64,000 bases of DNA from Candidatus Uhrbacteria bacterium (GTDB taxonomy: Bacteria > Patescibacteriota > Patescibacteriia > UBA9934). Each line of letters starts with the position of its first letter. Positions within the stretch are counted from its first letter, which is position 1. The stretch spans positions 3,512-67,511 of the forward strand of contig JABHCP010000001.1 in the NCBI GenBank assembly GCA_018673485.1, read 5' to 3'. The translations under genes were made by a program, and so were the position numbers. This document shows, one piece after another, positions 7,295 through 34,917 of the stretch. The notes under the pieces are model-generated. The model was given only the letters and a program-made list of their open reading frames with translations. It had not been told where the DNA came from and ran no database searches.

Positions 7295-8256
7295 TTTGCC
7301 ACAAAGCTATTGATCATCATCTGGAATGTTTGCAAATATACAATCTCCAACTCATCGGCAAGGTCGTATTCAAACACAAACACCATATCACCTGCTTCAA
7401 TGTAGGCCAGCAGCCCATCTGAACCGATATAAGCCATGTAACCTTCTTTCGTGAGGGTTACATCCAATTCACTGAAATCCTCACTTGTACGGGCACTGTC
7501 GCTATACCAATCACTAAAATCACCCTCAGCTGACTTAAAGCCAGCCAGACGTATAGTTGCAGTTGAATTTGTTCTAAATATAACATCTTGAGTTTCCTCA
7601 AACTCAGAGTCTACCTCAGTAGCCACACTCCATTGCGCCGGATAAGTCAGTGTCATCACCTCATCTTCACTCCGATATTCATCAACCGCACCGGTATCGA
7701 GCAATGTTTGTGGAGCCTCGCCCAAAGGACTGTAACGATGGAACACCTCATTACCATCGAGGAATGTGTCTCCATCGGTATCTGGATCTCTAACGTCGGT
7801 TCCATACAAAAGCTCTTCGATGTCTGAAAGCCCATCACTGTCCAAATCTGAACCCGACCTTATCTCGATTACCACATCTGGCACTATAACCTCGTCCACA
7901 GTTGTATCCGTAGGAATATCCTGCTCCACAGGCTCCACACTCTGTATTGCAAACCAACCCAAAATCGAAAGTGTGATTACTAATATTAAACCTGCCAAAC
8001 CAAGAATAAGTGGTAAGCGGGATTTTTTCTTCTTGACTGGAGTCTTTTTCGCAACTGGTTTCACCACTGGCTTGACGACTGGCTTTACAATAGGTTTTGC
8101 AACCGGCTTTGGAGCCGGCTTCTTATCTTCCTTAACAACAGTCTTTTTTTGTTTGAAAGCCTCTGGCATTACATTAATCACAAAATCACTCAGCTCATCT
8201 GATTGTTTGTTCTTTTGAGCTCCTGCTCTAGGCTTGTCTTGCGTTTTATCAAACAT
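7291..8256 (-). CDS. single-pass membrane protein with proline/lysine repeats and a thrombospondin-type-3-like calcium-binding repeat
   Basis: KPVVKPVVKPVAK repeats in a Lys-rich cytoplasmic N-terminus, transmembrane helix LPLILGLAGLILVITLSILGW, extracellular DPDTDGDTFLDGNEVFHRYSPLG. Confidence 0.6.
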   Translation of the reverse strand: MFDKTQDKPRAGAQKNKQSDELSDFVINVMPEAFKQKKTVVKEDKKPAPKPVAKPIVKPVVKPVVKPVAKKTPVKKKKSRLPLILGLAGLILVITLSILGWFAIQSVEPVEQDIPTDTTVDEVIVPDVVIEIRSGSDLDSDGLSDIEELLYGTDVRDPDTDGDTFLDGNEVFHRYSPLGEAPQTLLDTGAVDEYRSEDEVMTLTYPAQWSVATEVDSEFEETQDVIFRTNSTATIRLAGFKSAEGDFSDWYSDSARTSEDFSELDVTLTKEGYMAYIGSDGLLAYIEAGDMVFVFEYDLADELEIVYLQTFQMMINSFVAK

Positions 8257-8270
8257 AACACCACTACCTG

Positions 8271-8984
8271 CTATTTAGGTAAATCAAACAACTTCCCTTC
8301 TCCATTTGGATTGTATCCTGAGGCAACCTCTTGTCCGTCCAAATAACTATCATCATCTGTATCGGCATCAAATGGATCTGTACCATAAACCTTAACTTCC
8401 TCACGATCACCTAGCCCATCTTTATCGGTATCGACATCTAATGGATCTGTTCCTTCTGCAATCTCCTCAGCGTCGGTTAAACCATCACCGTCTGTGTCCT
8501 GCTCCTCCAATTCTTCGTCTGTAGGCTCTGTGTCATCAATAATCTCATCATCCGAAATCACATTATCAACCTCATCGGCGACATCCTCCACTGTATCGTC
8601 TTCTACTACTTCATCAATGGCGACATCCTGAGTCATTAATCTATATGCCAAATATCCCGCTGCCGCGATTATCCCGATGGCAACTATAACGATTAATATT
8701 ACTTTAAAAACATTGGAAATGTCAGACTTTGGAGGTGATGGTGGCACTGTCCCTCCTGCAGGTGCTGGTTGCTTAGTTGGTGCTTTTGGAGTTGGAGATG
8801 CAGCTGGCGCGGGTGCTTCAGGCTTTGATTCCGCTGGGGCTGGCTTTTGCTCAGGTGCTGCAACAGCACTTTCCACAGCGGCAGGGGCTACTGGTAGATT
8901 TGTAGGAACACCAGGAGCGTCAGCACTCGCAAACATATCCTCAACCTCAGGAGCATCATCTTTCTTTACTTGATCGTCAAACAT
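8271..8984 (-). CDS. single-pass membrane protein with a C-terminal TSP3-like calcium-binding repeat module
   Basis: Transmembrane helix VFKVILIVIVAIGIIAAAGY; DTDGDGLTDAEEIAEGTDPLDVDTDKDGLGDREEVKVYGTDPFDADTDDDSYLDGQEVASGYNPNG. Confidence 0.6.
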   Translation of the reverse strand: MFDDQVKKDDAPEVEDMFASADAPGVPTNLPVAPAAVESAVAAPEQKPAPAESKPEAPAPAASPTPKAPTKQPAPAGGTVPPSPPKSDISNVFKVILIVIVAIGIIAAAGYLAYRLMTQDVAIDEVVEDDTVEDVADEVDNVISDDEIIDDTEPTDEELEEQDTDGDGLTDAEEIAEGTDPLDVDTDKDGLGDREEVKVYGTDPFDADTDDDSYLDGQEVASGYNPNGEGKLFDLPK

Positions 8985-9011
8985 AAATTATTTATTTAGT
9001 ATTTGTATATT

Positions 9012-9920
9012 CTATCCTAATGGGTCGTATCCTCCAATGACCTCTGTGCCGTCATCATAACCATCGCCGTCTGAATCTGGATTTGTTGGGTCTGTTCCGT
9101 GCAAGCGAACTTCTTCATAATCTGACAAACCGTCATCATCTGAATCTGAATCTTCATCACTTGTTCCCTGATATCTTTCTTCGTCAGCGTCCAATCCATC
9201 AAAATCTTTATCACCTGGCCCCACCATTTCAAGACAGGTATATTTATATTCTCGGATCCCAACTAAATAACATTTAGTTGGGTCTTGAGCTTCAATTGCC
9301 TCAGCCATAATTGCACCATATTTACATTGCGCGTCAGATATAATCTCATTATCGCAATTGCCGTTAATGCTTGCGTTTTGAGCCCACAATGCATGACAAT
9401 TATCAACTTTTTCTGAACTAGAATACTCCTCGCAATCACTGTAGGTATAATCATCACTCATTGTTTGAGTCACTATGGCATCACCACAACTATCCCTTGT
9501 TTCTTGATCTTCAATTTTTTTACAATCATCGGCATCTAAGGATGTCAAAGCGGATAATGCTGCGCACGAATCATAATCATCACCTTCAAGCTCATCACAA
9601 TAAGCGGTGTCACCAGTTTGTTGAGCCAACCGTGGAGCAGCACTTGCAATACATTTCTCTACGTCATCAGCACTCTGACATGACTCAATATAAAGCCTTG
9701 TACTTTGCTCAATATCGTTGCTACTACTGAAAAATGAACTAATCACAAACATTAACAACCAAACAACAAGGCCGATGACAATAATCGCACCAATGACTCT
9801 CCTAATAAGCACTCGATGCATTAACAGCCTATCTCTAAGACTGATAGTCTTCTCACCTTCTTGATCAATCTCATACCAATCAACCTGCTTTTCATCAAAT
9901 TGTTTTTGTTCGTTTTTCAT
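9012..9920 (-). CDS. single-pass membrane protein, Cys-rich ectodomain plus C-terminal TSP3-like repeat module
   Basis: Transmembrane helix VIGAIIVIGLVVWLLMFVISSFF, many Cys, DSDSDDDGLSDYEEVRLHGTDPTNPDSDGDGYDDGTEVIGGYDPLG. Confidence 0.6.
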   Translation of the reverse strand: MKNEQKQFDEKQVDWYEIDQEGEKTISLRDRLLMHRVLIRRVIGAIIVIGLVVWLLMFVISSFFSSSNDIEQSTRLYIESCQSADDVEKCIASAAPRLAQQTGDTAYCDELEGDDYDSCAALSALTSLDADDCKKIEDQETRDSCGDAIVTQTMSDDYTYSDCEEYSSSEKVDNCHALWAQNASINGNCDNEIISDAQCKYGAIMAEAIEAQDPTKCYLVGIREYKYTCLEMVGPGDKDFDGLDADEERYQGTSDEDSDSDDDGLSDYEEVRLHGTDPTNPDSDGDGYDDGTEVIGGYDPLG

Positions 9921-9932: not shown

Positions 9933-12900
9933 TTAATCAGTACACATATTAAGATACATATCGGACAATTCAACCGTTCCCTCTCCATTTAAAGACACTC
10001 TCAGTGTCACTGTTTGTTCACTGGACTCATCACATGCGAATGTACTTGGAAGATTGATCGACCTGCTTGATCCAGCTCCAACAGTGGAAGCCTCAGTCTC
10101 ACCATCAAATGTCAACGAAATCGTTACATTAAGAATAGCGTCAACAATTGCTTCATACATATCAGCCAATTCATTCGCTGTTGTTGCGCTGTAAGCATAC
10201 GTTGTTCCATTGTCCGGCACTACACAGTCATGATTACCTTCTGTGGTCATAACTCCACATGAACCACCACCGTCTGTATCACTAATATCTGTGCATTCCA
10301 TGCTAGACCATCGTTGCATCTGAGCGATTTGACAGTCGTTACTGCTTAATACTGCCGAGAATACCTCAACACCAGCGTCCTTGATGTCATCAAGGAGATT
10401 GCTTACTCCTCGCATATATTCATCCGTATCCATAACATCATCACCGTCTGTATCTTCTGTGTCGATATGATCAAAGTACAAACTTTCGTAATCAGTATTG
10501 TAAATGTTTCCATCAGTGAAAATAATCATATACTCATTGTCAGCATACCCAGAGAATCCCAGCGCAGCGTCCTCAATAGATTCATAAATAGGTGTTCCAG
10601 TTACACCGTCAACAACTAGGCCATCGGATATGCTCAATTGAGTATCTGACTCTGTTGTATACACGCCTGCCGAACTTGCAGCCTCCAACATCAAGAACTT
10701 ACCTTCTCCAGACGACGCATAGCTCGCCCAAGCAATTAATGGCTTAAATGAACTCATGGCTTGATCCCACAGTGACATAGATGCTAACTTTGTACCCTTT
10801 AAGCCTGGGGTGAAAACAGTTGCATCATCTGCCTCTCCAACACCATCTGTGCCAGATGTACCACTGTCACCCAATCCATCATCGGTGCTACTATCATCAT
10901 CCTCACAAAGAGCCTCACAGTCAGCCACATCTACAGCCATTTCCCCACAATCACACACAACTGGGTCTGGCTCGACCTCTTCACACTCATCACCTATTCC
11001 ATCACCATCTGTATCTGTTTGCGAAGAATTGGAATCATCTGGACAGTTATCATCTTCATCTACTATTCCATCACCATCTGTATCTACAGGAGCCGTATAA
11101 GTTTGATGTGTCCCTCCAATATACGCCCATCCGATCCCCATATTTGCTGAGGTTCCATCATACGCTTCATGTAGAGACGTAATTGCATCACTAACAGCTG
11201 ATTCCAGAACCTCGATCCTGGTACTATCCCCCAGCTCTGAACTCATTGATCCTGAAAGGTCAATAACGAACATAATTTCTACATCCGGATACTCTCTGTC
11301 ACTCTGATCAATTGAAATACTAATCCCATCAGAAACGGTACATGCTGGAATATACAATGTAACTGTGTCACCACTGACTACACTAGTTGCAGTAGCGTCA
11401 TATGGCGCCAGATCTACGGTGTAGCTTCTGCTTGCCCCAATCTGATTCGTCTGCATTGAAATGCTTTGCGCAGTGTATGTAAACGGACAAGTTGACTCGC
11501 ATGACGCGTCACAACTTGGAGCAACACATGTGCTAATGCCGTCCATGCAAAGTTCGGAAGTCGGAGAACAGTAACTACCATCACTCCAGGCAGCACCCCC
11601 TGCATCTCCACCTTCGCAAACACCAGTCGGCACACATGAACGTCCCTCATCGTCCACCAATCCATAATCGCTTGCAAGGCATGTTTCTCCAATTCCTAGG
11701 CCTGCACGCTGATATAGAGTCTCACTGTAATAATTATATAAAACATCAGTTCCATCACAAGTCTCGCTTCCGTTAATAACTCCGTCACCGCAGAAACTTC
11801 CAGATGTTGTGACATTCACACAGCTCTCATTACAATACGCACAAGTTGATCCGTATGTAGCCGAGCATATTTGACCGTTGTCGATACCCTCATCGCAATT
11901 CTCCATGCCAGCGTAAACATATCCGTCACCACAAACGTTGCTGGTGCACTCTATTGTGCAGTCGTCTGTTGAGTCGTCATTTCCATCATCACACTCTTCG
12001 CCGTCGTCAACCACTCCGTCTCCACAAGACCCTGGTGCAATACAATCTATGTCTGCCCAATCCTCTCCCCACTCGCAAACAGAGTCATCACAACTTCGTG
12101 TGCGGATTGTTTGATATTCAAATGTTGAGCAAATTCCATCCCCTCCTACGCTACTATCACAATAACTATTAACTCCACACGGCTCACCGGTCTTGCTAGC
12201 GTCTCCATCGATACACACGGTGGTATAAGGGCACTCATTGGCCGTATCTTTGGAAATATCATCAGGATCAGAGTCTCCACAGACCGCAGTGCCCGCCTCA
12301 ATCTCAGCCTCAATATCGATATCGTCGCCGTCACTTAGCCCAAAAGTACCCGATGCACAATCGCTATCTTGTTCGCATTCACCATCATTGTCCGACATTC
12401 CTGATGAACAAATCTTTCCGGAATAAGTTTCTGTGTTTCCATCGCACTCTTCTGAATCATCTGCTGTGCTATCTCCACAATATGGCGCTGGACCGGAACA
12501 ATCCCAAGCACAAGTGTCAGACGCGCTTGCACTATAAACTCCGTTCAGATATGTACACGCCCCTGCTCCATAGGCAGCTCCAGACGCTGGTGCCACAGAT
12601 CCACAGTCGCACAGCTCACCACCAGCAAGCTCTCCATCTCCGCAGTAGGTACGTGCTGAGTTAGTACAATCTGCACCACAGAATCCATAACTACCATTTA
12701 AAGATCCATCATCGCATTCCTCACCAGCTTCTAAAACTCCGTTTCCACAACTCAAAACTTCACACTCTAATGTTGCGTCATAACCTGAACACTCTGAGTT
12801 ACAATTGTTTAATATATATCCATCATTAACTCCATCTTCATCTGAATCACACGCCGCGCCTGAAGTGGTATCCCCTATTTCACAGGTCTCAGCACTTCCT

Positions 12901-15900
12901 ACTATTCCATCTCCACAAATGTCAGATGAACCCCAAACTGTTGATCCGTCACAAAAGGCTGCTCCATTTTGGAATCCGTCACCAGTACCACTGCCTCCAA
13001 TTAAAATCTGATAATCATCATAAATATTATTATCAATATCTGGCACCCAACTTCCCTGTTCAAACTCAAGCTCAGCGCCTATCACATATCCAGCATCTCC
13101 ATAAGTTCGATAGTGATATGTTCTTGAGTCAACCGGACAAAGGTACTGACCGGTGATTTCGTTTACACAAGTTTCAGAATCATAATCGCTATAACGACCG
13201 GTTCCGCAAAGTATGTATTGATTCAACGGGTCAGCTGCAACGCTTACTCCCAACTCATCTGCCAAAACATCATTCCATGAAGTCCAAACGCTTGATGTCA
13301 ATGAACGCACGAAACTTCCTGACTCAATTTGTGGAATCGTGCCACCCATGTAGCTCGCAATATCAGTAACGTCCCCCAAGCGATCCATGTCACGCATTAG
13401 CTTTGATTTTTCATCAGCGCACTCATAACCTACCGTGGTGCAATCTAAATCCGAAGTACAGCTATCGCCATAGTCCCCGTCTGTGCTGCGGTAACACATC
13501 GCTGTGTCATCAATATTATTTACCAATGACATATTCTCTATAAACATGTCGTAAATCTCTACCGCAGTGCTGCTTGCACCATAGTTGTACGAGACAATTA
13601 CAATATTTGGATACAACGAACCAGATACATAATTAGGCACGGCGACATAAATTGAACGTCCATCCACTACAGCTTGGAACCCATCGATAGTTGTTTCGGT
13701 TGGACTACCTGAGAACCCGTTCGCGTAATACCACGCAAGCGGACTTAGGTACGCCTCGTTCATAATAATCCTCATTCCAATGGCGTCGCCTGTTGGAATG
13801 TTGTCGTCATAAACATTAAAGAAATATTCCTTCAGAACATCATCAGTACCATGCTCTTGAGCCATCACTACTCGCAACTCAGGATAATCATCTGAAATTA
13901 GATCATCATCACCGTCGTCGCGACAATAATATGTTGAGAAGTTCATCCACGCTCGACCATGACGAGCCGATGTTGCAACACCTGCATGGTACCCATCGGC
14001 ACTGTCGCTAAATGGGAAATACTCCAGAGCTGGCCATAAGTTTTCACAAACCACTACTGACACGTCAGCAGTACCAGAGACAGTTGTCGCCTCACAAGTT
14101 CCAGAATCGCCACAGGCGTCCCCGGGTGTACACCCGGTAATGCTCGCGTCACTACTGCAATAGAACGACTCACCCGAGTCATCAACGGTCACAATGGCTG
14201 AGGTTGCGATGTTGGCCTGTCCTGTTATACCTGCCGCTGAATACGACCCTAAAGCAGGGCTTGCTAGATCAACAGTTTCGTCATCCAAAATCATTATTAT
14301 ATCTTCACCATTTGGCGCGCCATAGACATCAACACCGTCAGCGTCAGAACTCCAACTAACCCATCCCCATGCATAACTTGAAATTGGCTCAATTGATTGG
14401 GCTGCGCCTGTGTCATATGAATACGCTGTTGCTGAGAATTCATGAGACTCTCCGGACTCAGTAAACACATTTGGACTATCCGTTTCTCCATCGACAATAT
14501 CAACCTCGTCGAGCCCACAAATACTTTGATATGTTTCAAATATTTGTGAATGATCTCCATCCATTGCTACACCGTACCTTGTTAGCAATCCCTCGCGCGC
14601 TGTGTCGTCGAGCTCATCACCATAAACATAAATTGAATACTGAGCGTCGGGTGCCAGCGCTTCGTCGTAATGGAATACTACCTTGTAAACCTCATCCGCA
14701 CCCTCGCCTACGGTGCTCTGCGCAAAGCCAGTCATTGGCATAACACAGTCTCCACCATTTTGAGCTTGGACAATTGGAGCCAACATTCTACTAATCAAAC
14801 TAAAGGCTCGGCTCCACCAACCCTTTTGAATTTCATTCATTGCTATTGTTGAATGCGTACTTGGGCACAGTCCATCATCCGTCGTTGACACATCAAGGAT
14901 CAAAAATGCATTGTCATCAAATGATGATACGTCCATCTGCATATCAAACAATCCGTAAATCTCGGCATTTAAACATGCGCTTGAACCATTCGGGAAAAGA
15001 TCTGGATCAGGGCGTGCCATGCAACAACCAGTTGTAGCTGGGCCATAGCCCTCGTCACAGTCATCATCGTTTTCAGCTACACACGACAAGTAAAGCGAAG
15101 TGTAAGCTGAAAGTCCGTCATATGAAACCTCGATTGTTGACGTTGCAATATTTGTATCCATATCAACCTGCTCAGCTGCATCATCGATGATTTGAGCAAG
15201 CTGTACTGGGTCTGGATAACCATCAGGTCCAGCGCCATACGAGCTTTCCTCGCACACTGCCAACTCACCACTTCCTACAACTCCGTCTCCACAAACTGAA
15301 GGGTCGACGTAATAAATTGAAGAACCTGAGAGCAAGCAATCACTAGAGCACCACTCTTCCCCATCGCAATCCTCACCAGCGCCAGTGGAGCTGTCTTGAT
15401 CGAGCGACTCATCACCACAAGTTCCATAGCTTCCAGCTGAACCTTCACGCAAACAACTTGAAGAACACCCATCACCATCGATGGTGTTACCGTCGTCGCA
15501 TGTTTCATAAGGAGCATCTATATCCCAATCTCCGTCTCCACACTCAGCTGCAACTTGAGTAATAGGTGTTGTTCCTTCGTTTAAACATACTGAGGAACAT
15601 CCGTCACCTGAGGATGCATTTCCGTCGTCGCACTCTTCTCCACCTTGATCGTCCTCATGTGCCTCATCAAGATTTCCACAAGTTGCTCCGACTGACTGCG
15701 AGCCCTCGTTCAAACACGAACTTGAGCATCCGTCACCATTTCTCGAATTACTATCATCGCACTCCTCACCAGCATCCAAGTCTCCGTCTCCACAACATGA
15801 CGCGTCGTCTTGACCACAAGTTGAACTAGAATAAACACACTCTTCGTCAGACCCGCAAACTGTGCCAGAGATTGAGCAAGTGCCCTCCAGTGTTTCAGTG

Positions 15901-18900
15901 TCGCTGATCTCACAAACATCCTGACACTCCACGTCTGTACTACACGAGTCTCCAGTACTAGAGCATGAATACGTACAGGCGCTGGAACCAACATTTTGAC
16001 ATGTACTTGAACACGTAACATCGTCGGTGTCATCGCAGTCCTCACCAATCTCTACTATACCGTTACCACAAATTCCATAATATATTTCAGATCCTGTAGC
16101 AACGCACTCGGAAGTGCATCCAGACGGAATATTAGTTTGTCCGACATCAAATAGATCGCTTGAAATAGTCACCCACTGCGCGACATCCTCATCATCCACT
16201 ATTGGATCGGTCCACACCCACTCATATTCATAGCCATTCAATTCTTGTCCGGCAACTGAACAACTATCCGGATCTCCATAGGCAGTTACTTCGTAATACT
16301 GTGTGTCGCCAATGCTATCAAGTGTAATATTTTCTGGCTCCAAGCCTATGCGACCGACCAAACAAAGTGCATCGTCGTCCTTAGTCCCAAAAGTCCAAGA
16401 AAAATCATCGCCATAGTTTGTTCGTGACAGTGGAACTCCGCTTGTCGAGATAGCTGACCCCGAAACTATAACTCTATAATATTCTGCTTCTTTCAGCTCT
16501 GTGCCATATGTAGTGTCAGAAATTACCAGAGCAACCTCTGAACATCCAACAGATTCGATATCAGTTGAATCTCCAATAGAATCTGTATCGCTACAGCTTG
16601 CCACAGTTGTAATTTCTGAAAGAGTTGCGCAAAGCTCGTTCGCGCATGAATACAACGCTATATCACCAAGAACTGAATCATCCATTAGTGTATTGAAAGT
16701 TACGCTGATCGCACCGTTAATGCATGCGGTATCACAGTCTGGCAAGTAATCACTTACATAAGGATCCGCAAAGTTCACTATCACCTCGGCGTCTCCCTCT
16801 GTACCACTAGCCTGCTCTTCTGCAGTTAGCACCGTCGTACCCTCCGCTACCGCCACTGCTGACTGACAATACTCGTCGCTTATAGTCGCACAACTCGTCA
16901 GCCCAACATATGAACCAGTATCCAAATCCCAATCCCATGAGTAATCAACTGGATTTAGCACCTGGCACTCTTGAAGTGGAAGTGCATTAAACTCTGATTC
17001 ATCTCCCTGCTCGTCGATTGTCGCTGATATCGGACTAACCAAAACCTCGGATACATCACAATCCTCCTCACTTGCACCAGTTGTGAAAGTCCATGAATAT
17101 TCCTGGCTTAAGTTCTGTCCATCTTGGGACATTATTTGATCACTAACTTCTACTAAATACGAAGTGCTTGTCTTAAATTTTCCGCCATTATATGTTGAGT
17201 GTGCTGTCCATATAAACGATGTCTGAGTGGCGCTCGCGCTATCTTGCACTGAATCTGCCAAAACCTCTGCCGCGTCCTTATCGTCACCGCTTAGATCGCA
17301 ATCACTGTCCTCGCACTCATAAACTTTGATGTAGTCGCTCGTGATAGTGCTTGTATCCATTAATGTGCTGAAAGTTCCACGCACAACCGCATTAGTGCAC
17401 GCCTCTCGCGTGAAGCGATAGTTAGGCACGGCACTCACCAAAGTATCCGAACATTCAACTAAAAGTTCAGGCACTACCGGTATGGGTCCAGTTGAGAAAA
17501 ACCAGCTATACCCACCCAGCGACAATGTGGTGTCACTCGACTCTTCTGCTCCTATTTCAAAATTAAGCGTGTTACTTTCTTCTCCTCCGGCTGAAGTAAC
17601 ACTCAACGCTCCAGTCTGCGCTCCAGACGGAACATTTACAGTAATATCACTATCGCTCCAGTCACCAGAGACGACTGTAGCGCTCACACCGCTGAAAAAC
17701 TCAACTGAACCAATGTCAGAGCCAAGGTTCTCTCCATAAATAACCACGGTATCATCCACTTCGCCCATATCCGGATCAATTGCGCAAATTCCCGGCGTTG
17801 GGTCATCATTTGTTACTTCAAAATCCATAGCCTCGGAGTCAATATCGGCCTGGCTTGTTATATAAATATCATAGTCCCCTACCGTAAGACTGTCTCCGCC
17901 TGTAAATTCGTCAGGCACTATTACAGTTATTTCGGTGGTATCCCAAATTTGTCCCTCACACTCATCTGGAAACTCAATACTTCCTTGCGCTGTGTATCCG
18001 CTGGTCTGATCCTCAAACCAAACGGTGCCCAAAGAAGATCCAAAGCTTGTTCCGGAGATCGTTACATATTGACCGATCCCTCCACTATCAGGCTCAACTG
18101 AATAAATAGTTGGTACAATGTCATCTCCATAATCAACACCAAAGCTGATCTCGTTTGAAGTCACTCCATCAACTGTCACAGAAAGATCAACGTACTCACC
18201 GGCAGTGAGTGACGGAACAGTAATTGTGAGTGACGAATCTGACCACCTAGAGTAACTGCTCGTCGTGGTTGTATTAAAACTTACAAATGAATCATCTCGA
18301 CTGTCTCCAAAGCCTAGCCCAGAAAGTGACACTCCGTCTCCGACTTCAGCAGTATCAGGACTAACGTTACAAAGACTTGGTCGCTGCGTATCATTAACAT
18401 CAAAATCATCAATTAATGCACCCGAATCATCGTCGGTTGCGTCTGAATACCCTCGAGGTATCTCGATTGTAATTGGACCATCAGCTGCTCCGTCTGGTAC
18501 TTCAGCAATGATCTCCTCAGAGTTCCAACCGTCACCACATGATGGAATATCGGCCTCAACTGTGCCACCCGCACCATCTGCGAAGTAAACGGAACCAGTT
18601 GACCCAAAACCGGATCCAGAAATAGTTACATAAGTTCCAACCGCACCGTTTGAAGGTGAGACGCTACTTATTTCAGGATATGTTACACATGCCCCATCTT
18701 CACAGTCTCCACCCGAACAATCACTATCTTCAGAGCATGATTCACCATCGCAACTACCACAACTTCCACCGCAATCAACCCCCTCTTCGTCACCATCCAA
18801 TACTCTACTAAAACAATGAGCTGGCAGAATCCTAATTCGAACAGAATCAGAATCTTCATTTCCAGCAATATCGGTCACTGTAACTTCGAGCGTGTAACGT

Positions 18901-19928
18901 GCATCTTCCTCGGCGTCATCTGTGTACCAAGTGCTCTCGATTGTCACGTCAGACAAGTCTGCACCACTGGCTGCAACACTATCGAACCAATCGTCACCGG
19001 CATAAAAATCAGCAACTGATATTTCACTATCATCTGTTGCAGATATTTGAACAAGCGTTGAACTATCCGCTGGAATCATCTCACCACTATCTGGATATGT
19101 GACGCTTACATTGGGGTCCTCTGTATCAACTATGTCCCCTGTTGTGAAAGTCGATGTACAACTTACAGCCGAACAATCTAGAGAGGTTCCTGATGTGCTA
19201 TCAATATCGCTATCAACTACAACTGTGTATTGTGTATTTTCACCAAAACAGAATCGATCTTCATTAGGTTCCGGGCAAGGCTCCGATGGTGTAAACGTAA
19301 CTTTATTTCCAGAAATCTCTAATGTGCCATCAACCTCATCGCCAGTTTCTGTATTAGAAATAGTAAGATTGCCCTCAACGGTATCCTCTTGAACTCGCCG
19401 GCTAAAAGTAACATTCAAAACCACGTTTCGAATTGAAACCTCACCTTCTGGTGAATAACTGGCAACTGCAAAGCTCGAAGCCGATCCACCACCCATACCA
19501 CTGGACGCCCCTGAAGAACTTGAGCTTGAACTCGATCCTGAGCCACCCGAGCCGTCTGTTAAGGCCCCTAACACAAATGTGGTGATTGACCAGGACAAAA
19601 GTATTATTCCCAGGCCAATAAAGCCATTTAATAAAATCTTTTTCGCTTTATCCACTTTGTCAGGGTCGCCTTGGGCTGTCATCCAGACAAATCCTCCGTA
19701 CAGCACGATGACCACTGCAATAACGCCCAGCACCGTCAGAAAGGTTCTGATCAGCCTGGCGACTATGATTTGCAGACTCTCATCTTGCAAACCGCTAGTC
19801 TCACCTACAGTTTCAAGTTCATCAACTTGAGCGTACGCTGTGTGGATTGGTGCTAAAACACCTCCCGACACAGTAAATACGACTGCGAGTGCGCTTAATA
19901 GTAAAGTGAAACGTTTGAGTAATGACAT
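9933..19928 (-). CDS. giant (3331 aa) membrane-anchored surface protein with IPT/TIG repeats, Myxococcus-type cysteine-rich repeats, a vWA domain and TSP3 repeats
   Basis: N-terminal signal peptide plus a two-helix module (LGVIAVVIVLYGGFVWMTAQGDPDKVDKAKKILLNGFIGLGIILL). Repeated SPxxGxxGxYVTISGxxFG IPT-like units. At least 8 CGDGxxxxGEECDDGNxxxGDGCSxxC units. MIDAS motif DVEIMFVIDLSGSMS. DTDGDGIVDEDDNCPDDSNSSQTDTDGDGIGDEC. Confidence 0.85.
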   Translation of the reverse strand: MSLLKRFTLLLSALAVVFTVSGGVLAPIHTAYAQVDELETVGETSGLQDESLQIIVARLIRTFLTVLGVIAVVIVLYGGFVWMTAQGDPDKVDKAKKILLNGFIGLGIILLSWSITTFVLGALTDGSGGSGSSSSSSSSGASSGMGGGSASSFAVASYSPEGEVSIRNVVLNVTFSRRVQEDTVEGNLTISNTETGDEVDGTLEISGNKVTFTPSEPCPEPNEDRFCFGENTQYTVVVDSDIDSTSGTSLDCSAVSCTSTFTTGDIVDTEDPNVSVTYPDSGEMIPADSSTLVQISATDDSEISVADFYAGDDWFDSVAASGADLSDVTIESTWYTDDAEEDARYTLEVTVTDIAGNEDSDSVRIRILPAHCFSRVLDGDEEGVDCGGSCGSCDGESCSEDSDCSGGDCEDGACVTYPEISSVSPSNGAVGTYVTISGSGFGSTGSVYFADGAGGTVEADIPSCGDGWNSEEIIAEVPDGAADGPITIEIPRGYSDATDDDSGALIDDFDVNDTQRPSLCNVSPDTAEVGDGVSLSGLGFGDSRDDSFVSFNTTTTSSYSRWSDSSLTITVPSLTAGEYVDLSVTVDGVTSNEISFGVDYGDDIVPTIYSVEPDSGGIGQYVTISGTSFGSSLGTVWFEDQTSGYTAQGSIEFPDECEGQIWDTTEITVIVPDEFTGGDSLTVGDYDIYITSQADIDSEAMDFEVTNDDPTPGICAIDPDMGEVDDTVVIYGENLGSDIGSVEFFSGVSATVVSGDWSDSDITVNVPSGAQTGALSVTSAGGEESNTLNFEIGAEESSDTTLSLGGYSWFFSTGPIPVVPELLVECSDTLVSAVPNYRFTREACTNAVVRGTFSTLMDTSTITSDYIKVYECEDSDCDLSGDDKDAAEVLADSVQDSASATQTSFIWTAHSTYNGGKFKTSTSYLVEVSDQIMSQDGQNLSQEYSWTFTTGASEEDCDVSEVLVSPISATIDEQGDESEFNALPLQECQVLNPVDYSWDWDLDTGSYVGLTSCATISDEYCQSAVAVAEGTTVLTAEEQASGTEGDAEVIVNFADPYVSDYLPDCDTACINGAISVTFNTLMDDSVLGDIALYSCANELCATLSEITTVASCSDTDSIGDSTDIESVGCSEVALVISDTTYGTELKEAEYYRVIVSGSAISTSGVPLSRTNYGDDFSWTFGTKDDDALCLVGRIGLEPENITLDSIGDTQYYEVTAYGDPDSCSVAGQELNGYEYEWVWTDPIVDDEDVAQWVTISSDLFDVGQTNIPSGCTSECVATGSEIYYGICGNGIVEIGEDCDDTDDVTCSSTCQNVGSSACTYSCSSTGDSCSTDVECQDVCEISDTETLEGTCSISGTVCGSDEECVYSSSTCGQDDASCCGDGDLDAGEECDDSNSRNGDGCSSSCLNEGSQSVGATCGNLDEAHEDDQGGEECDDGNASSGDGCSSVCLNEGTTPITQVAAECGDGDWDIDAPYETCDDGNTIDGDGCSSSCLREGSAGSYGTCGDESLDQDSSTGAGEDCDGEEWCSSDCLLSGSSIYYVDPSVCGDGVVGSGELAVCEESSYGAGPDGYPDPVQLAQIIDDAAEQVDMDTNIATSTIEVSYDGLSAYTSLYLSCVAENDDDCDEGYGPATTGCCMARPDPDLFPNGSSACLNAEIYGLFDMQMDVSSFDDNAFLILDVSTTDDGLCPSTHSTIAMNEIQKGWWSRAFSLISRMLAPIVQAQNGGDCVMPMTGFAQSTVGEGADEVYKVVFHYDEALAPDAQYSIYVYGDELDDTAREGLLTRYGVAMDGDHSQIFETYQSICGLDEVDIVDGETDSPNVFTESGESHEFSATAYSYDTGAAQSIEPISSYAWGWVSWSSDADGVDVYGAPNGEDIIMILDDETVDLASPALGSYSAAGITGQANIATSAIVTVDDSGESFYCSSDASITGCTPGDACGDSGTCEATTVSGTADVSVVVCENLWPALEYFPFSDSADGYHAGVATSARHGRAWMNFSTYYCRDDGDDDLISDDYPELRVVMAQEHGTDDVLKEYFFNVYDDNIPTGDAIGMRIIMNEAYLSPLAWYYANGFSGSPTETTIDGFQAVVDGRSIYVAVPNYVSGSLYPNIVIVSYNYGASSTAVEIYDMFIENMSLVNNIDDTAMCYRSTDGDYGDSCTSDLDCTTVGYECADEKSKLMRDMDRLGDVTDIASYMGGTIPQIESGSFVRSLTSSVWTSWNDVLADELGVSVAADPLNQYILCGTGRYSDYDSETCVNEITGQYLCPVDSRTYHYRTYGDAGYVIGAELEFEQGSWVPDIDNNIYDDYQILIGGSGTGDGFQNGAAFCDGSTVWGSSDICGDGIVGSAETCEIGDTTSGAACDSDEDGVNDGYILNNCNSECSGYDATLECEVLSCGNGVLEAGEECDDGSLNGSYGFCGADCTNSARTYCGDGELAGGELCDCGSVAPASGAAYGAGACTYLNGVYSASASDTCAWDCSGPAPYCGDSTADDSEECDGNTETYSGKICSSGMSDNDGECEQDSDCASGTFGLSDGDDIDIEAEIEAGTAVCGDSDPDDISKDTANECPYTTVCIDGDASKTGEPCGVNSYCDSSVGGDGICSTFEYQTIRTRSCDDSVCEWGEDWADIDCIAPGSCGDGVVDDGEECDDGNDDSTDDCTIECTSNVCGDGYVYAGMENCDEGIDNGQICSATYGSTCAYCNESCVNVTTSGSFCGDGVINGSETCDGTDVLYNYYSETLYQRAGLGIGETCLASDYGLVDDEGRSCVPTGVCEGGDAGGAAWSDGSYCSPTSELCMDGISTCVAPSCDASCESTCPFTYTAQSISMQTNQIGASRSYTVDLAPYDATATSVVSGDTVTLYIPACTVSDGISISIDQSDREYPDVEIMFVIDLSGSMSSELGDSTRIEVLESAVSDAITSLHEAYDGTSANMGIGWAYIGGTHQTYTAPVDTDGDGIVDEDDNCPDDSNSSQTDTDGDGIGDECEEVEPDPVVCDCGEMAVDVADCEALCEDDDSSTDDGLGDSGTSGTDGVGEADDATVFTPGLKGTKLASMSLWDQAMSSFKPLIAWASYASSGEGKFLMLEAASSAGVYTTESDTQLSISDGLVVDGVTGTPIYESIEDAALGFSGYADNEYMIIFTDGNIYNTDYESLYFDHIDTEDTDGDDVMDTDEYMRGVSNLLDDIKDAGVEVFSAVLSSNDCQIAQMQRWSSMECTDISDTDGGGSCGVMTTEGNHDCVVPDNGTTYAYSATTANELADMYEAIVDAILNVTISLTFDGETEASTVGAGSSRSINLPSTFACDESSEQTVTLRVSLNGEGTVELSDMYLNMCTD

Positions 19929-19937
19929 GTAACAAGA

Positions 19938-21749
19938 TTATGAACTAAAGAAGGAACACGCGTTGTCCGATGGCGCTCCATTGCAACAATAAGGGTAATC
20001 ACTATCTGTACCACAGCTTCCTCCAGAAGTATCTGGCCCTTCTCCTGGTGCAAAACAATTTTGATACTGGTTCTTTACCCCATCCCCAACATCTGTTGTG
20101 TAATAATATGTAGCTGTATCAACACTTTCAAAAAATACTCCATGATAGATCTCTGCCTGAGTTACAACTGGGCTTAAACCAGTTTCTGACGTGTCACCAC
20201 CAAATATATCTAACGAATTTGACCAAACCGTATACCACATCTCATGCAACGGGCTTGAAGTAAGGTCGATGAAATTTTCTGTGTCGGTTGAGCTTGTAAG
20301 CGTTGACGTCATCATTATTGAATCAAAGGTAACTAGAACTGTTTGATCCAAAGCCACATCTTCTTCCAAAATATTTGGAGAAATATCGACTATCACAGGT
20401 GCGTCCAAGCTGATATCACCCGTTGTTGTAAAACTCCACACATAATCGTCACCAGCTGTACCATCGCCGTCACCATCGAGCCCGTTACCGGACGTATCAG
20501 CTATTCCGTCATAAGGAGAAATATCAACCTGCGGTGGCTCGGCCCCTATTGTCGGTGCACCAACAGTTACAGTAATTGGCTGACTGCCGGGTAAACAATA
20601 AATTGTTTGTCCGCAAGAGTTTGTGCCACAAGGGTCGTCTGACGTAAACGTGACTGTTCTATAACCATTACTAATTACATATTCACCGGCAGTTGGTGTT
20701 CCGCTATCACCCGTAACTTGGATGTTGTCAAAACCTGAATCGGTACCGCGTATACCTGTGGCACTAGTTAAGTCCACCGCTTCGCTGAAGGTTATCTCGA
20801 CCGTAATGTTTCTATCATAACTTCCAGACGCTACTGGAGTGACAGTTCTAACGCTTGGTGGAGTAAGATCAATTTCAGTTCCAACTTCAAATGACCACTC
20901 GTACCCTCCGCCATTTAATACTGTAGATCCTTCGGCGGTTTTTATACTGTCGTCGAGGAACACAGTGTATGAGGTGTCGTCAGTTGGAGAACCCAAAAGC
21001 GGCGTGTCGAATACAAATGTTTTTAAATCATCAGTGAAAGTAACACTTACCTCCGTTGATGCAAACACTGTACCGTCCTCATCTGCTGATTGATAAATGA
21101 TTATATTATCTGCGTTTAGCGCGGTGTCAACCGTGTCATCTGAAAGGTCTTCTGGAGTTCCGTTCACATCGTACCCCTCAATAAATGACTCAATGTCCAT
21201 CGCTTCTTTAAAGGTAACGAAAATTCGCGTGTTGCGAGCAACCTCGGTTGCGTTACGTGCTGGGTAATGATCGCTAAGTCCGCCCGACCCTAATGAGCCT
21301 GACAATCGCTCAGCAGATATTGTAGTCGAAGAAGACGTTGACGATGTGCCGGTGCTTGAAATTGCTCCAGTCAACGCACTAATGATAAATGCAGTAATCG
21401 CATATGCCCCCAATGTGATAATCAAACCAATGGTTGCGTTGATAAGTATTGTCTTTGCCTTGTCGACCTTGTCGCCCTCGCCACCGGCTGTCATCCAAAG
21501 GAATCCAGCATACAGAACGAGAAGTAAGAAGATGACTCCTAATGTACTTAGGAATACTTTTATAATTGTCCCGATGAGTTCTGCTAAGTCTGTATCTTGA
21601 AGTCCTGATGCATCTCCGGTAGCTTCCAGTCCTTCAGCGACTTGCGCGAATGCAGGTACTGCACTAAAAACAAAAAGCATCAGTACAAAAAAACTGACAC
21701 CTACCATCAACATACTCGCTTTGGGTAGAAGCGCTCTAAATATATTCAT
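19938..21749 (-). CDS. 603 aa surface protein sharing the N-terminal two-helix module with the giant protein; Ig-like domains
   Basis: N-terminus LGVIFLLLVLYAGFLWMTAGGEGDKVDKAKTILINATIGLIITL is paralogous to that of the 9933..19928 protein; S/T linker; Big-like domains (VTFKEAMD, ITFSEAVD). Confidence 0.8.
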   Translation of the reverse strand: MNIFRALLPKASMLMVGVSFFVLMLFVFSAVPAFAQVAEGLEATGDASGLQDTDLAELIGTIIKVFLSTLGVIFLLLVLYAGFLWMTAGGEGDKVDKAKTILINATIGLIITLGAYAITAFIISALTGAISSTGTSSTSSSTTISAERLSGSLGSGGLSDHYPARNATEVARNTRIFVTFKEAMDIESFIEGYDVNGTPEDLSDDTVDTALNADNIIIYQSADEDGTVFASTEVSVTFTDDLKTFVFDTPLLGSPTDDTSYTVFLDDSIKTAEGSTVLNGGGYEWSFEVGTEIDLTPPSVRTVTPVASGSYDRNITVEITFSEAVDLTSATGIRGTDSGFDNIQVTGDSGTPTAGEYVISNGYRTVTFTSDDPCGTNSCGQTIYCLPGSQPITVTVGAPTIGAEPPQVDISPYDGIADTSGNGLDGDGDGTAGDDYVWSFTTTGDISLDAPVIVDISPNILEEDVALDQTVLVTFDSIMMTSTLTSSTDTENFIDLTSSPLHEMWYTVWSNSLDIFGGDTSETGLSPVVTQAEIYHGVFFESVDTATYYYTTDVGDGVKNQYQNCFAPGEGPDTSGGSCGTDSDYPYCCNGAPSDNACSFFSS

Positions 21750-21841
21750 AAATATTTCTATTGTAAGTCATTACGACTAACAACATTATACCGCAAATGC
21801 ATGATATCTTCGCGATGAAATGTGGACAAAGAACAAACCAA

Positions 21842-21870
21842 AACACCACTCGATATTTTCGAGTGGTGTT
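21842..21870 (-). terminator. rho-independent terminator after the Gly-rich giant gene
   Basis: ACACCACTCGA-tatttt-TCGAGTGGTGT, an 11 bp perfect stem followed by a T-run on the minus transcript. Confidence 0.6.
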
Positions 21871-21892
21871 TATCATTTCATCTTTCAATTTT

Positions 21893-24800
21893 CTATTGAG
21901 ATAACTCTGTGCGCTTCTTCATTACCTTACCTTCAAGATCAAGATCATCGGCCTCGTCAACATCATCTCCTTGCGTAAACCTCGGAAAAAACGTTGCCTC
22001 GACATCTATGATGTATTGGTTCCAATTGTCGCCATATAGTGTGTTTGCAACCTCTTCTGAGGCTATCCAGCGGATAGTGATTCCATCTGAATCTATTGCA
22101 TAGACCTTAGGGTCAGACTGGATCTTGATGAGTACGACACCTGGATTAGGAAGCATCGGATGTCCTAAAGTTATTGTTGTCAACGTTGCGTCCGTTACTG
22201 TCTTCACGTTATCGAAGTTATCTTGGTAGGTAAAGAATGTCTGTGCATCCATGAAAGGACGTCGGACCATATCACCTGTTGAGCTATCGGTGTCGAGGTA
22301 ATAAACAGTTGAGAAGTATGAACTTCGGATGTAATCCCCTATCTCAGTTACAGATATGTCCTCAACTTCTCCTGTCACTGGTGAGTAGCCTTGTTCTCCC
22401 GTGGTTGGTTCTGTGACCTCGGAAGTTGGATCTTCGTCGATCGTATTATCGGTTGAGTCTTCTGTGCCGTCATCCGCACCGTTGAGCGCACAACTCTCGG
22501 TCTCGAAGGTGGCTGTGATCTCTGCGAGGTCTGTTCCTTCGATCTTAAACTGTAGTGTAGATCCTGCAATGTCCGCTGGTATTGTCCAAGTGTAGTTCTC
22601 TGTGTTAGTTATTGGGCCTTCAATGAGAGTATATGTTATTCCTGCGTCTGTTGAGTAATATAGATTGACGAGGTTCACAGAAGAGTTTGAAGCCCATGCA
22701 AGGGCGATGTTCTCTCCAGGGTTGAAACCTTCTTCGCATGTTCCAGATGCACTTGAGGACTCTGAGATTGAATCTACTGGATTGTCGTCTGTTCCAGAGC
22801 CAATGGATGGGTCTGGAGCGGACGATGAGACTGAGACGCCTCCAGAGGATGCTGTTGTGAATGTGGCAGGGTGGGTAACGCCAGCAATAGCACCACCGAA
22901 TGCTGTGGCGGCGGCGTCTGCCGCTACTGTCATTGTGAATGTGTAATCTGTTGAACTTTCGAATTGGTCATGTGTGACAGTTAAAACGGTATTACCTACT
23001 GTCCATGCATCTACCTTACCTCCAGGATCTGCTGATAGCGTATATGCTGCAGTGCCTGTGTTAATAGCCTCCGAGAAAGTAACTACAATATCTTCTGAGG
23101 TTGAAACGTTTGTTTCAGCGTCAGCTGGAGAAAGGACTGTAATAACAGGACCGGTTCTGTCTCCATACACAACATTTGCGAAAGCTCCGATGTCAGTGTT
23201 TGTGTTTGTTCCATCTGTTATTGAAAAGTTTACCTGTGAAAGAACAGATAGAGTACCTGAACCTTCGTTGGTATCTACTACTGTTGCCGGAGTTGCAAGC
23301 GTAATCTCAAGACTGCCGACTGTTCCCTGAACAAGATCTGTTGTGGAACCTCCAAAGGCTAGGTTGTCGAAATCTCCGTCAACGTCCACGCTCAAGTCTG
23401 CGTAACGGATGACCGAGGCGGCTGTAATGTTTTCTGAAAATCTTAGATCAAGAGTATCTACTTTACCGTCCGCATCTTGGTCGGAATAGTTTATATCTGT
23501 AATACGAGGTTTCGCGCCGTCCGTTGCTGCTTTAGAACCTGAGGTTGTTGAGTTTGCTGAGGTATCATCGATCGATCCAGCGATTGTAATAGTGGGGGTA
23601 ACAGAAGTATCTCCAATACTCTTTTCTGTAAGAACTACTGTAATTTGTGAATCAGCAGTACGTGAGGCTGACGCTACGGTGTAGCTGTCAGAGGACGTGA
23701 AGTCAGCTCCGGCGATCGTTCCAGTTTCAACGTCTTCAGTCATTGTTAAAATAACGGCGTCGATGTAACCATCTGAATCTGTGTCATCTGTGGCCGCTGA
23801 TGAGATTGATGGGCCGTAGAGGTCAACAGCAGACAACGAACCGTCTCCACCGTTAGTAGCTGCGTCTGGTCCAGTTCCTCCAGCAGAAACAGTTGAAGCG
23901 ACAAGACTGGAAAGATAATTAGACGAATCCGCACCATAGGCAACGCGAATACGCCCTCCTCCACCTCCACCACCGTTTGTGGTTGTTCCAGAAGAATCAT
24001 GTCCGTCACCTCCAATGGCTGTAATGGCTCCACTCGTACCAGAAAAAGCACCAGCTGTTACGATTTTAATGGACCCTCCAGAACCACCACCAGTTGACTC
24101 AGTCGAATCTCCATTACCAGCAGATCCATTAGCCGTTAAAGAACCACTTACAACTATGTCACCAACTGAATCAAGAATAATTAACCCACCACCACTAGCT
24201 CCAGCTTTATTAGCTGTTCCACCAGATGAAGAACCAAAAAGTATAGGATCTGTAGAAGAACCATAACTAGCTCCGTAATCGTTTGCTAAGTTTCCTCCTG
24301 CTCCATCTCCACCTGTGCCACCGTGTCCGGCACCCTGAGTGGAAAGAATTGAGTTTGCATAACCATGACCATAACCAGATCCAACCTGACTTTGACTACA
24401 GACGTTTGATCCGCTTGGTCCAAAACCATTTCCGTTACCAACCCCTGTACATCCTTTTCCATTTGCATTGATAGCCGATGTACCATCGATTGATAACGAA
24501 GCCAAGTTTTGCCAATCAACACTTCCATTGATCGTTGAGCCTGTCATGGTAACAGCGGCAGCCTCATTCAAAGTCATCGTGATTGCGGCAGGCAAGCTAA
24601 TCGTAGCCGAGCTAAACCCAACTGTTCCAGTTGATGAAAGATCGAAGTTTGTTATCGCTTCCGTGGAGCAGTCCAATACATTTATGAATGTAATATTGGT
24701 TGCAGTAAGCGATGGCGTTGCATCTATTGATGCATCACAATACATAGACACTACAGATGAATCTGTCGTCCATGTTGTTGCAGAATAATCTCCAGTAAAG

Positions 24801-25924: not shown

Positions 25925-26007
25925 GTTTAAATTGTTGGCTATATTATAGCACCGCGGAGTGCTAAAAAAAACAAACATGGGGATAGAAAAAACCCCGCAT
26001 CACACCA

Positions 26008-28003: not shown

Positions 28004-28092
28004 TAGCACCTCCAGGCAACTTGACCAGATGAGTTCTCCTAAACGGAGAAAGCACCTTAACAAACAATCGACTTTGCGTCAATCTTAGCCCT

Positions 28093-34912: not shown

Positions 34913-34917
34913 AAAAT

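Follow-up and report, generated by a model that had tools for sequence, protein, structure and literature searches.

How are two very large surface proteins held on a cell that has no outer membrane, and is the module that would hold them a pilin? The question is raised by two adjacent genes of Candidatus Uhrbacteria bacterium, lying in a stretch of 64,000 nucleotides of contig JABHCP010000001.1 (the window). They share one orientation, are separated by 9 nucleotides and encode proteins of 603 and 3,331 amino acids (aa), the second of which is called the giant below:

19938..21749, minus strand: open reading frame (ORF) of the 603-aa protein (ORF list and translation)
9933..19928, minus strand: ORF of the 3,331-aa giant (ORF list and translation)

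We read the two proteins as modular pilins related to VirB2, the pilin class of conjugative type IV secretion systems (T4SSs), which anchor an adhesin and present it for binding to a host. To this reading, taken as far as specific co-assembly with other pilin modules, we assign a rough probability of 0.55; its component claims are graded separately below.

Both ORFs lie exactly where the original prediction, made from the sequence alone, had placed them, and the N-terminal module that it claimed for both was recovered by BLASTP, which aligned residues 6-127 of the 603-aa protein with residues 2-124 of the giant at 47% identity and 67% positives (E=4e-27, composition-based statistics). Since this composition-corrected match is strong at the N-terminus and the remainder of the two proteins aligns weakly, the likeness is specific and not a product of low complexity. 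Common to both N-termini is an order of signal peptide, SGLQD segment, first transmembrane helix (TM1) ending in LY(G/A)GFxWMTAxG, loop DKVDKAK and second transmembrane helix (TM2). A signal-peptidase-I site of the form AxA/Q, the slash marking the cut, follows residue 33 in the giant (AYA/QV) and residue 35 in the 603-aa protein (AFA/QV), and is kept in orthologues of the giant as well as in free-standing pilins. A Kyte-Doolittle scan along each protein gave three hydrophobic segments, corresponding to the signal peptide, TM1 and TM2, and none past residue 131, hence no C-terminal anchor. AlphaFold2 modelled both proteins as a signal helix and a short helix, followed by a long helical hairpin with a predicted local distance difference test (pLDDT) score of about 90, at residues 52-84/89-128 of the giant and 55-86/92-130 of the 603-aa protein. 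Hydropathy and model thus agree on two hydrophobic helices after a cleavable leader, as had been claimed, and not one. A search of the whole window with a hidden Markov model (HMM) of the module (hmmsearch) found no copy beyond these two ORFs. The predicted parts of the two N-termini are as follows:

21645..21749, minus strand: signal peptide of the 603-aa protein, aa 1-35 (...VPAFA/QV; hydrophobic segment, AlphaFold2 helix 2-29)
21369..21644, minus strand: mature VirB2-like pilin module of the 603-aa protein, aa 36-127 (47% identity to the giant's module, AlphaFold2 hairpin)
19830..19928, minus strand: signal peptide of the giant, aa 1-33 (...HTAYA/QV; hydrophobic segment 1-31, AlphaFold2 helix 2-24)
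19557..19829, minus strand: mature VirB2-like pilin module of the giant, aa 34-124 (PF18895, NF045849, alignment with free pilins, AlphaFold2 hairpin), in which an amphipathic N-segment bearing SGLQD precedes TM1 (about aa 59-85, with LYGGFVWMTA at its end), the loop QGDPDKVDKAKK follows and TM2 spans about aa 98-123

The family to which this module belongs was examined with profile searches. Against Pfam PF18895 (T4SS_pilin; gathering cut-off 26.6 bits) the giant's module alone, taken as the first 132 residues, scored 47.5 bits (E=1.9e-12), and the full protein 37.4 bits. The NCBIfam model NF045849, describing the Mbov_0395 family of pilin-like conjugal transfer proteins, matched the giant's module over 72 of its 80 profile positions at 36.7 bits (E=2.5e-9; cut-off 40). 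The homologues retrieved by a word-indexed search are small (97-205 aa) and, with one exception, carry PF18895; one of them is named as Candidatus Uhrbacteria and one is named "pilin". These free-standing pilins align over the module from the leader to TM2 and end 0-12 residues after it; because they cover it end to end, the N-termini of both window proteins correspond to whole pilins and not to fragments. PF18895 is also carried by nearly all orthologues of the 603-aa protein among the matches listed. No signal-anchor family appeared among the Pfam profile matches to the module, and neither protein contains the type IV pilin N-methylation motif (Pfam PF07963), the leader being of type I (AxA/Q) with two helices after it; the same Pfam model does match a true type IV pilin-like ORF in one related locus (L078, the L-numbers being labels of related loci in the genome scan described below). 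Membership of PF18895, and with it of the conjugative-type, VirB2-like pilin family, is in our judgement very probable on these profile matches. The original prediction had named a conjugative or T4SS-type pilin as opposed to a type IV or Flp pilin, and the PF18895 match and the lack of an N-methylation motif bear it out; the module falls within a pilin family, not within an unrelated one such as an ordinary signal-anchor.

An exhaustive profile search of 1.84 billion cluster representatives gave 81,936 hits with E<=1e-3. Ranking by score biases the best 150 toward this subfamily; they form three classes: free pilins, proteins with 2-17 tandem hairpin units, and proteins in which a single N-terminal module precedes 500-5,000 further residues. 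Positions conserved at 80% or more coincide in the sets of giants, 600-aa proteins and free pilins (Y.GF.WMT..G, AK, IGL.II and I..F), and the predicted-extracellular GL...D segment is kept in the fused modules also. Mean identity is 0.51 within the giant set, 0.47 within the 600-aa set and 0.41 among the free pilins, with values of 0.42-0.47 between sets. The fused hairpins thus retain every signature residue of the free pilins while their stalks have diverged to 23-28% identity.

The proteins with tandem hairpins merit a separate description. Approximately half of the best family matches are such "poly-pilins", in which 2-17 hairpin units are joined by extracellular linkers (P0013, P0014, P0016, P0020 and others). 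The largest number of units was seen in P0016, a protein of 1775 aa with 17 matched stretches; P0013 and P0016 read as continuous ORFs and are not fused gene calls. In the literature that we found on the T4SSs of Patescibacteria there is no mention of poly-pilins.

The relationship of the module to canonical VirB2 and TrbC is more distant. An hhalign comparison of 187 module sequences with 119 VirB2 sequences gave a match too weak to prove homology (probability 35%, E=4e-4) in which helix 1, the W-M motif, the loop and helix 2 nonetheless stand in register; with a single VirB2 sequence as partner the probability was 16%, likewise weak. The Agrobacterium VirB2 query scores 63 bits on PF04956 and is 98% identical to a database VirB2. 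Among PDB sequences, a profile of the module had no match at E<=10. Bridging members were found on two sides. A free pilin of 146 aa in the genome of the closest relative (L076) matches both PF18895 (8e-11) and PF04956 (1e-3), and precomputed annotation assigns both families to at least six orthologues of the 603-aa protein among the matches listed. Homology of the module to VirB2/TrbC is probable, resting on these bridging members and on the in-register alignment. Comparable proteins have been described in the phylum: structure-based annotation found predicted pilin subunits inside an essential T4SS cluster of Southlakia epibionticum (PMC10633639), which have been called VirB2-like (PMC12857230), and a survey of 3,035 genomes combined PF18895 with PF04956 to define the VirB2-like pilins of Patescibacteria (PMC12102498).

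To what extent the gene pair is conserved was assessed in a scan of one genome per GTDB species, in which 584 relatives of the module came up; of the 79 best loci, which were retained, 77 contain matches to the module HMM. In 57 of the 77 loci the same tandem was found, consisting of a pilin-headed protein of 480-1,060 aa and, after a median gap of 9 nucleotides, a pilin-headed giant whose length ranges from 1,400 to over 3,480 aa. Of the remaining loci, 15 have one long member (several at contig ends) and 5 consist of 6-11 free pilins in an array. The extensions are orthologous from end to end, with identities in the best loci of 37-69% for the giant and 46-67% for the ectodomain of the 603-aa protein; the giant's Ig-like/IPT stalk is orthologous over its full length in 71 loci. 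Named relatives belong to Uhrbacteria, Magasanikbacteria, Falkowbacteria, Kuenenbacteria and Kerfeldbacteria. Table S1 of PMC12102498 assigns Uhrbacteria and Magasanikbacteria to GTDB class ABY1, for which most of the entries examined are VirB4-positive. The position of the cassette is also maintained, with hisS upstream in 59 loci and lepB in 54, and with TSP3-repeat (thrombospondin type 3) membrane proteins, ybeY and ftsA downstream. All 30 of the long single-module proteins in the best 150 are homologues of either the 603-aa protein or the giant, with stalk identity down to 23-28%. By sequence these are two old, vertically inherited fusion families.

The possibility that the module is a generic anchor for varied cargo was considered separately and is rejected, given that 30 of 30 long single-module representatives are homologous to the 603-aa protein or to the giant.

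Two further observations concern the scanned loci. Many of the metagenome-assembled genome records bearing the cassette (L001, L003, L006-L009 and others) are titled "uncultured Gammaproteobacteria bacterium", and one "Candidatus Kapaibacterium"; such titles look like placeholder or wrong taxonomy and are unfit for inferring distribution. The genome of the closest relative holds a six-gene array of free pilins, and free PF18895 arrays of 6-11 genes lie directly after an SBP_bac_1 (solute-binding protein) gene in four loci (L033:1534-5547, L048:5664-11972, L071:42-5343 and L078:6535-13426). The larger ORFs near the free arrays encode solute-binding proteins, Wzy/Wzx, PNPase and others with no assigned family. 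This pairing of solute-binding protein and pilin array sits oddly with a purely T4SS role of the free PF18895 pilins.

The residues that follow the hairpin form a flexible linker and a series of predicted extracellular domains. In the 603-aa protein these are:

21279..21368, minus strand: Ser/Thr/Gly linker (AlphaFold2 pLDDT <50 for aa 129-142; composition in 59 orthologues)
19941..21278, minus strand: tandem bacterial Ig-like domains forming the ectodomain, with a C-terminal tail rich in Cys (Pfam Big_5, E=5e-14, 3 stretches)

AlphaFold2 predicted the ectodomain as a series of all-beta domains (pLDDT >90 within domains, 84 overall), for which Foldseek returned the BIg domains of LdtMt2, the S-layer proteins SbsC and SbsB, and titin Ig domains. 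The protein matches more than 400 clusters at 90% identity, labelled "hypothetical", "Ig-like domain-containing protein", "pilin" or "Type IV secretion system pilin/Bacterial Ig-like domain"; the pairing of pilin and Ig-like domain is thus already visible to automatic annotation. The stretch directly after TM2 is 22-26% Gly across orthologues of both proteins (58 of the giant, 59 of the 603-aa protein), and in the giant the extension is considerably more elaborate:

19473..19559, minus strand: Gly/Ser-rich, putatively flexible linker, aa 124-152, directly after TM2 (sequence reading and orthologue composition)
16059..19472, minus strand: Ig-like (Big_5, Big_7) and IPT/TIG stalk, from aa 153 to about 1290 (Pfam)
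15249..16058, minus strand: first acidic Cys-rich repeat block, CGDG..EECDDGN..GDGCSS.C (NCBIfam TIGR02232, 59.5 bits; Pfam DUF4215)
12939..15248, minus strand: central conserved region without known relative, aa about 1561-2330 (orthologue alignment)
11379..12938, minus strand: second Cys-rich acidic repeat region, aa 2331-2850 (repeat reading; kept in orthologues by tblastn)
9936..11378, minus strand: C-terminal vWA-like domain of about 480 residues with the metal ion-dependent adhesion site (MIDAS) motif DLSGSMS, aa 2851-3331 (alignment and PDB profile)

In 58 orthologues of the giant the 40-aa linker stretch is 26% Gly and 11% Ser and variable in sequence. The stalk matches Pfam TIG (E=3.6e-19, 3 stretches), Big_5 (E=1.5e-8, with a further Big_5 at aa 842-950) and Big_7 (E=2e-4), and the Cys pattern of the first acidic block is invariant in the orthologue alignment. 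The central region is the best-conserved part of the protein, with dozens of invariant W/Y/C/N/G columns across 11 orthologues, and may be its functional core; aa 1651-2350 have no Pfam match at E<=1 and no relative among PDB sequences. In the C-terminal domain, 10 orthologues all share D40, S42 and D289-G290, and S44 is almost invariant among them, consistent with a MIDAS of the form D-x-S-x-S plus a later DG. A profile of this domain matched, among PDB sequences, SpaC (3.6e-6), the group B Streptococcus (GBS) pilus adhesin 3tvy, Streptococcus sanguinis PilB (7b7p), TRAP, integrin I domains and complement factor B. The Pfam model VWA_2 scored 20.1 bits on the giant's C-terminus (E=1e-3), below its cut-off of 27, because a variable, acidic, TSP3-like insert splits the domain. 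On the strength of the MIDAS residues and the profile matches, the C-terminus is classed as a vWA domain of adhesin type resembling those of pilus-tip adhesins. Overall the giant is strongly acidic and Cys-rich (D+E 19%, K+R 2.4%, Cys 4.6%). Neither an LPXTG motif, nor a lipobox Cys at the cleavage site, nor a C-terminal transmembrane segment was found in either protein (C-termini ...LNMCTD and ...ACSFFSS). Two further elements of the original prediction, fusion of the module to Ig-like, IPT and adhesin-type repeats and a mode of anchoring unlike sortase, lipobox or C-terminal systems, are thereby confirmed, the first by the Big_5, Big_7 and TIG matches together with the vWA/MIDAS head and the second by sequence and hydropathy.

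How such proteins could be deployed is suggested by the layout of the module. Each pre-protein would be exported via its Sec signal peptide and cut at AxA/Q by signal peptidase I, leaving the mature N-terminus outside, TM1 running inward, the Lys-rich loop DKVDKAKK in the cytoplasm and TM2 running back out. This N-out, loop-in, C-out arrangement is proposed on the basis of the signal peptide, the positive-inside rule (the loop holds 3-4 K/R in 117 orthologues) and the known topology of VirB2-type pilins, and would place everything C-terminal of TM2 outside the cell. Multi-hairpin proteins are topologically consistent only if each of their units is N-out and C-out, which fits the same arrangement. 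Beyond the membrane a Gly/Ser tether would lead into an Ig-like/IPT rod, continued in the giant by Cys-rich repeats of calcium type, the conserved central domain and the vWA/MIDAS tip; the hairpin would hold this fibre, 470 or 3,200 residues long, in the cytoplasmic membrane (the cell has no outer membrane), and the tip would bind a ligand on a host or partner cell. We regard extracellular display from a membrane hairpin as likely.

A more specific role is suggested by the conservation of the hairpins. Given that the signature residues are retained although the stalks have diverged, and that a mere anchor would not need them, the fused modules probably make the same specific contacts as free pilins. 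The fused hairpins could dock into a pilin assembly, either a pool of pilins in the membrane or a T4SS-built pilus, and in a pilus they would sit sparsely or at the tip, as adhesin-bearing minor subunits. Short C-terminal fusions to F-pilin are said to have been displayed on F pili by Rondot et al. in 1998. In the cyclic TrhA of the H-pilus, the joined termini (Gly1-Asp69) lie exposed at the outer surface, with the lipid headgroup directed toward the interior (PMC13031515); a C-terminal extension would accordingly project outward once the filament is assembled. Polymerisation was the second alternative in the original prediction; that the fused pilins enter an extruded pilus is the part of the proposal that we consider unlikely. 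Similarly doubtful is its most ambitious form, in which the 603-aa protein and the giant would be true T4SS-type (VirB2-class) pilus subunits of a monoderm, the first modular pilins of conjugative type, with the giant's vWA domain as the missing adhesin. No PrgB-type adhesins were detected in Patescibacteria (PMC12102498), and the fused pilins, as minor subunits analogous to modular type IV pilins such as S. sanguinis PilB, would fill this otherwise undetected role in their T4SSs.

Several results weigh against the reading as co-assembling modular pilins. With the 603-aa protein, PF18895 reached 21.2 bits for the module alone and 19.5 bits in the full protein, both below the cut-off; PF04956 (TrbC/VirB2) gave E=1.3 with the giant's module and no direct match to the window proteins; and fold searches with the hairpin were non-specific, any helical hairpin matching alike. 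The proposed topology is derived from general rules. To our knowledge no VirB2-like pilin of Patescibacteria has yet been shown to form a pilus. No VirB4, VirB6, VirD4 or other T4SS family was found among the window ORFs of at least 150 aa, and the flanks of the cassette examined in related loci are housekeeping genes with no T4SS gene nearby. Nor were T4SS families, VirB4 included, found among the larger ORFs flanking the free arrays (L033, L048, L071, L076 and L078). Finally, a folded extension of 3,200 residues is sterically incompatible with the dense helix packing of VirB2 type.

Much of this evidence would be expected if an ancestral pilin gene had been co-opted as a cleavable leader plus hairpin, giving membrane-tethered envelope proteins or fibrillar adhesins that do not polymerise at any stage and whose action does not depend on a T4SS. 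A purely static anchor of this kind would account for a cassette seated among lepB, hisS, ybeY and ftsA, for fusion families inherited vertically as core genes and not as T4SS-linked cargo, for free arrays that do not stand beside virB4 among the ORFs scanned, and for extensions whose size speaks against packing into a pilus. It explains less readily why Y.GF.WMT..G, the AK loop, IGL.II and GL...D are conserved as in free pilins or more, when hydrophobicity alone would suffice, and why two different fused pilins stay side by side in 57 loci, an arrangement which suggests contacts between hairpins. We treat it as a serious contender, at somewhat less than even odds. A second possibility is that the extension is cut from the module after export, so that the giant is released to the wall, the S-layer or the medium and the hairpin serves as an export carrier or as a normal pilin. 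In TrbC and VirB2, residues C-terminal of the hairpin are removed during maturation, which counts in favour of such processing. Maturation of TrhA likewise removes the signal peptide and five C-terminal residues (PMC13031515), and the disordered Gly/Ser linker right after TM2 would be accessible to a protease. The sole S26 peptidase in the window is, however, the housekeeping signal peptidase I lepB (TIGR02227, 140.8 bits); a dedicated S26 peptidase of TraF type was not found there, TraF models reaching no more than 38.5 bits (cut-off 100). Moreover, the linker varies in sequence among orthologues with no conserved cleavage motif, and the stalk has no other anchoring device that would keep a released protein of 3,200 aa on the cell, making release improbable. 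It is more improbable still, to the point where we give it very little credence, that the N-termini are unrelated to pilins, with a generic signal peptide and two transmembrane helices resembling T4SS pilins by convergence or through an artefact in the naming of PF18895. The PF18895 match is strong and specific, alignment with free pilins runs end to end, members of the family bridge to PF04956 and to the pilin-like family of Mycoplasma integrative and conjugative elements (ICEs), and the pilin subunits of Southlakia epibionticum are essential and lie inside a T4SS cluster (PMC10633639, PMC12857230). We accordingly retain the modular, adhesin-presenting VirB2-like pilin as the preferred interpretation of both proteins.

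Comparison with known systems delimits what is shared and what is distinct. Closest are the free VirB2-like pilins (PF18895) of Patescibacteria, which come from the same phylum and have the same layout of AxA/Q leader, GL...D, LYGGFxWMTAGG, Lys-rich loop and second helix. They measure about 110-220 aa and end a few residues past TM2, whereas the cassette proteins add 470 and 3,200 residues; they also occur in variable arrays, of 2-11 genes according to Quinonero-Coronel et al. 2025, in contrast to the fixed two-gene tandem of the cassette in its housekeeping neighbourhood. Canonical VirB2, TrbC, TraA and TrhA share the signal-peptidase-I leader, two hydrophobic helices, a basic loop and, in register, the W-M motif at the end of helix 1, but lack C-terminal domains, and the host of the cassette is a monoderm with no T4SS cluster or TraF-type peptidase nearby. 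The Mbov_0395-family protein of Mycoplasma ICEs is likewise a small two-helix protein of a monoderm T4SS, differing in its length of about 80 aa and its lack of an extension. The principle of a small pilin carrier joined by a short linker to an adhesive module is best known from the modular type IV pilins of S. sanguinis, PilB with a vWA and PilC with a lectin module (PMC8179133), and a vWA/MIDAS is common to PilB, which has been modelled at the pilus tip (PMC8179133), and the giant. Type IV pilins differ in that their leader is of class III, they bear an N-methylation motif and they have just one helix at the N-terminus; none of these features occurs in the cassette proteins, and the extension in the cassette is up to about 7 times the size of the whole 454-residue PilB. 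An Ig-like stalk with a vWA head is also shared with the tip adhesins of sortase pili (SpaC, GBS104, RrgA), which are joined covalently by sortase via LPXTG and pilin motifs, whereas the cassette proteins would attach by an N-terminal membrane hairpin. Alike in principle only is the extended VirB6 of Rickettsiales, a T4SS membrane subunit enlarged by large hydrophilic domains (PMC12857230); it belongs to a different subunit family and is polytopic, with five or more helices.

The genes around the cassette are those of a chromosomal housekeeping region: pyk, nrdR, ftsZ, ftsA, ybeY, hisS, lepB, der, pth, dprA and topA, together with relA, parAB, scpAB, aspS, recO, map, adk, secY and rpsE; window ORFs of at least 150 aa are either housekeeping genes or have no assigned family. 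Features adjoining the pair on either side are:

21893..25978, minus strand: upstream gene of a 1361-aa protein with a signal peptide and no pilin module
21841..21871, minus strand: terminator-like hairpin with a 13 bp stem, followed by promoter-like sites, between the 1361-aa gene and the cassette (consensus scan)
7291..9920, minus strand: three packed downstream genes encoding proteins of 302, 237 and 321 aa (Pfam and translations)

The terminator-like hairpin and promoter-like sites suggest that the cassette starts its own transcript, and this hairpin together with gaps of 9 and 12 nucleotides suggests that the two pilin-headed genes are co-transcribed with the TSP3 genes. Read from their translations, the 237- and 321-aa downstream proteins have an N-terminal cytoplasmic tail, one transmembrane segment and an acidic ectodomain. 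TSP3_bac, the calcium-binding bacterial thrombospondin type 3 family, matches the 302-aa and 237-aa proteins and a further ORF at 34839-35660 on the plus strand, all of them acidic; the 321-aa protein has no Pfam family. These downstream genes were found 3' of the giant in 17-26 loci by tblastn. The insert in the giant's vWA domain bears the same TSP3-type motif as the downstream proteins, hinting at a calcium-dependent surface complex.

Three other loci of the window were characterized in passing. The 1361-aa protein upstream of the cassette is predicted to be secreted. A Gly-rich unit of roughly 400 aa (GKGCxG..GNGFGP..NVC...) occurs in it twice, alongside a Big_5 domain and a C-terminal domain that is conserved; conservation of the protein as a whole is limited to the closest relatives (L001, L002, L004 and L009). 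Between hisS and the surface-protein genes, positions 27275-29022 hold two minus-strand ORFs (262 and 284 aa) with no family match and a G+C content of 52.9%, compared with about 44% in the rest of the window. Weak homologues at 28-32% identity occupy the same place in the two closest relatives, and the segment could be a small foreign or fast-evolving insert. A 531-aa ORF at 58273-59868 on the minus strand combines a LexA DNA-binding domain, an S24 peptidase domain and a C-5 cytosine DNA methyltransferase, and is convergent, with a 4-bp overlap of ends, with a gene for a Bsp6I-like restriction endonuclease at 57668-58276 on the plus strand. Positions 57668-59868 would thus encode a restriction-modification system whose methylase bears a LexA-type repressor module.

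In the literature that we found, including a dedicated survey of Patescibacteria (PMC12102498) and a 2025 review of T4SSs, there is no mention of a pilin-adhesin fusion. New here are the two-gene cassette in at least 57 species-level genomes, its vWA/MIDAS head and the undiminished pilin signature of the fused copies. The discovery of VirB2-like pilins in Patescibacteria is recent and still awaits an explanation: they are essential in the single species tested, no pilus or adhesin has so far been tied to them, and they occur in a monoderm wall type in which conjugative pili were thought absent. A widespread pair of pilin-headed stalk and vWA protein is a concrete candidate for the attachment of epibionts to their hosts, and its large exposed ectodomain offers an experimental handle for where pilin modules go. 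If the strongest form of the proposal were true, the essential, non-conjugative T4SS of ultra-small epibionts would double as a deployer of fibres of about 100 nm that capture host cells. The pair extends the principle of the modular pilin from type IV pili to an unrelated, conjugative pilin class. Even if the hairpin only anchors, it would represent a distinct tether for giant surface proteins, apart from sortase, lipid and C-terminal anchors, and this mode of tethering appears to belong to the core traits of a large class that is uncultivated.

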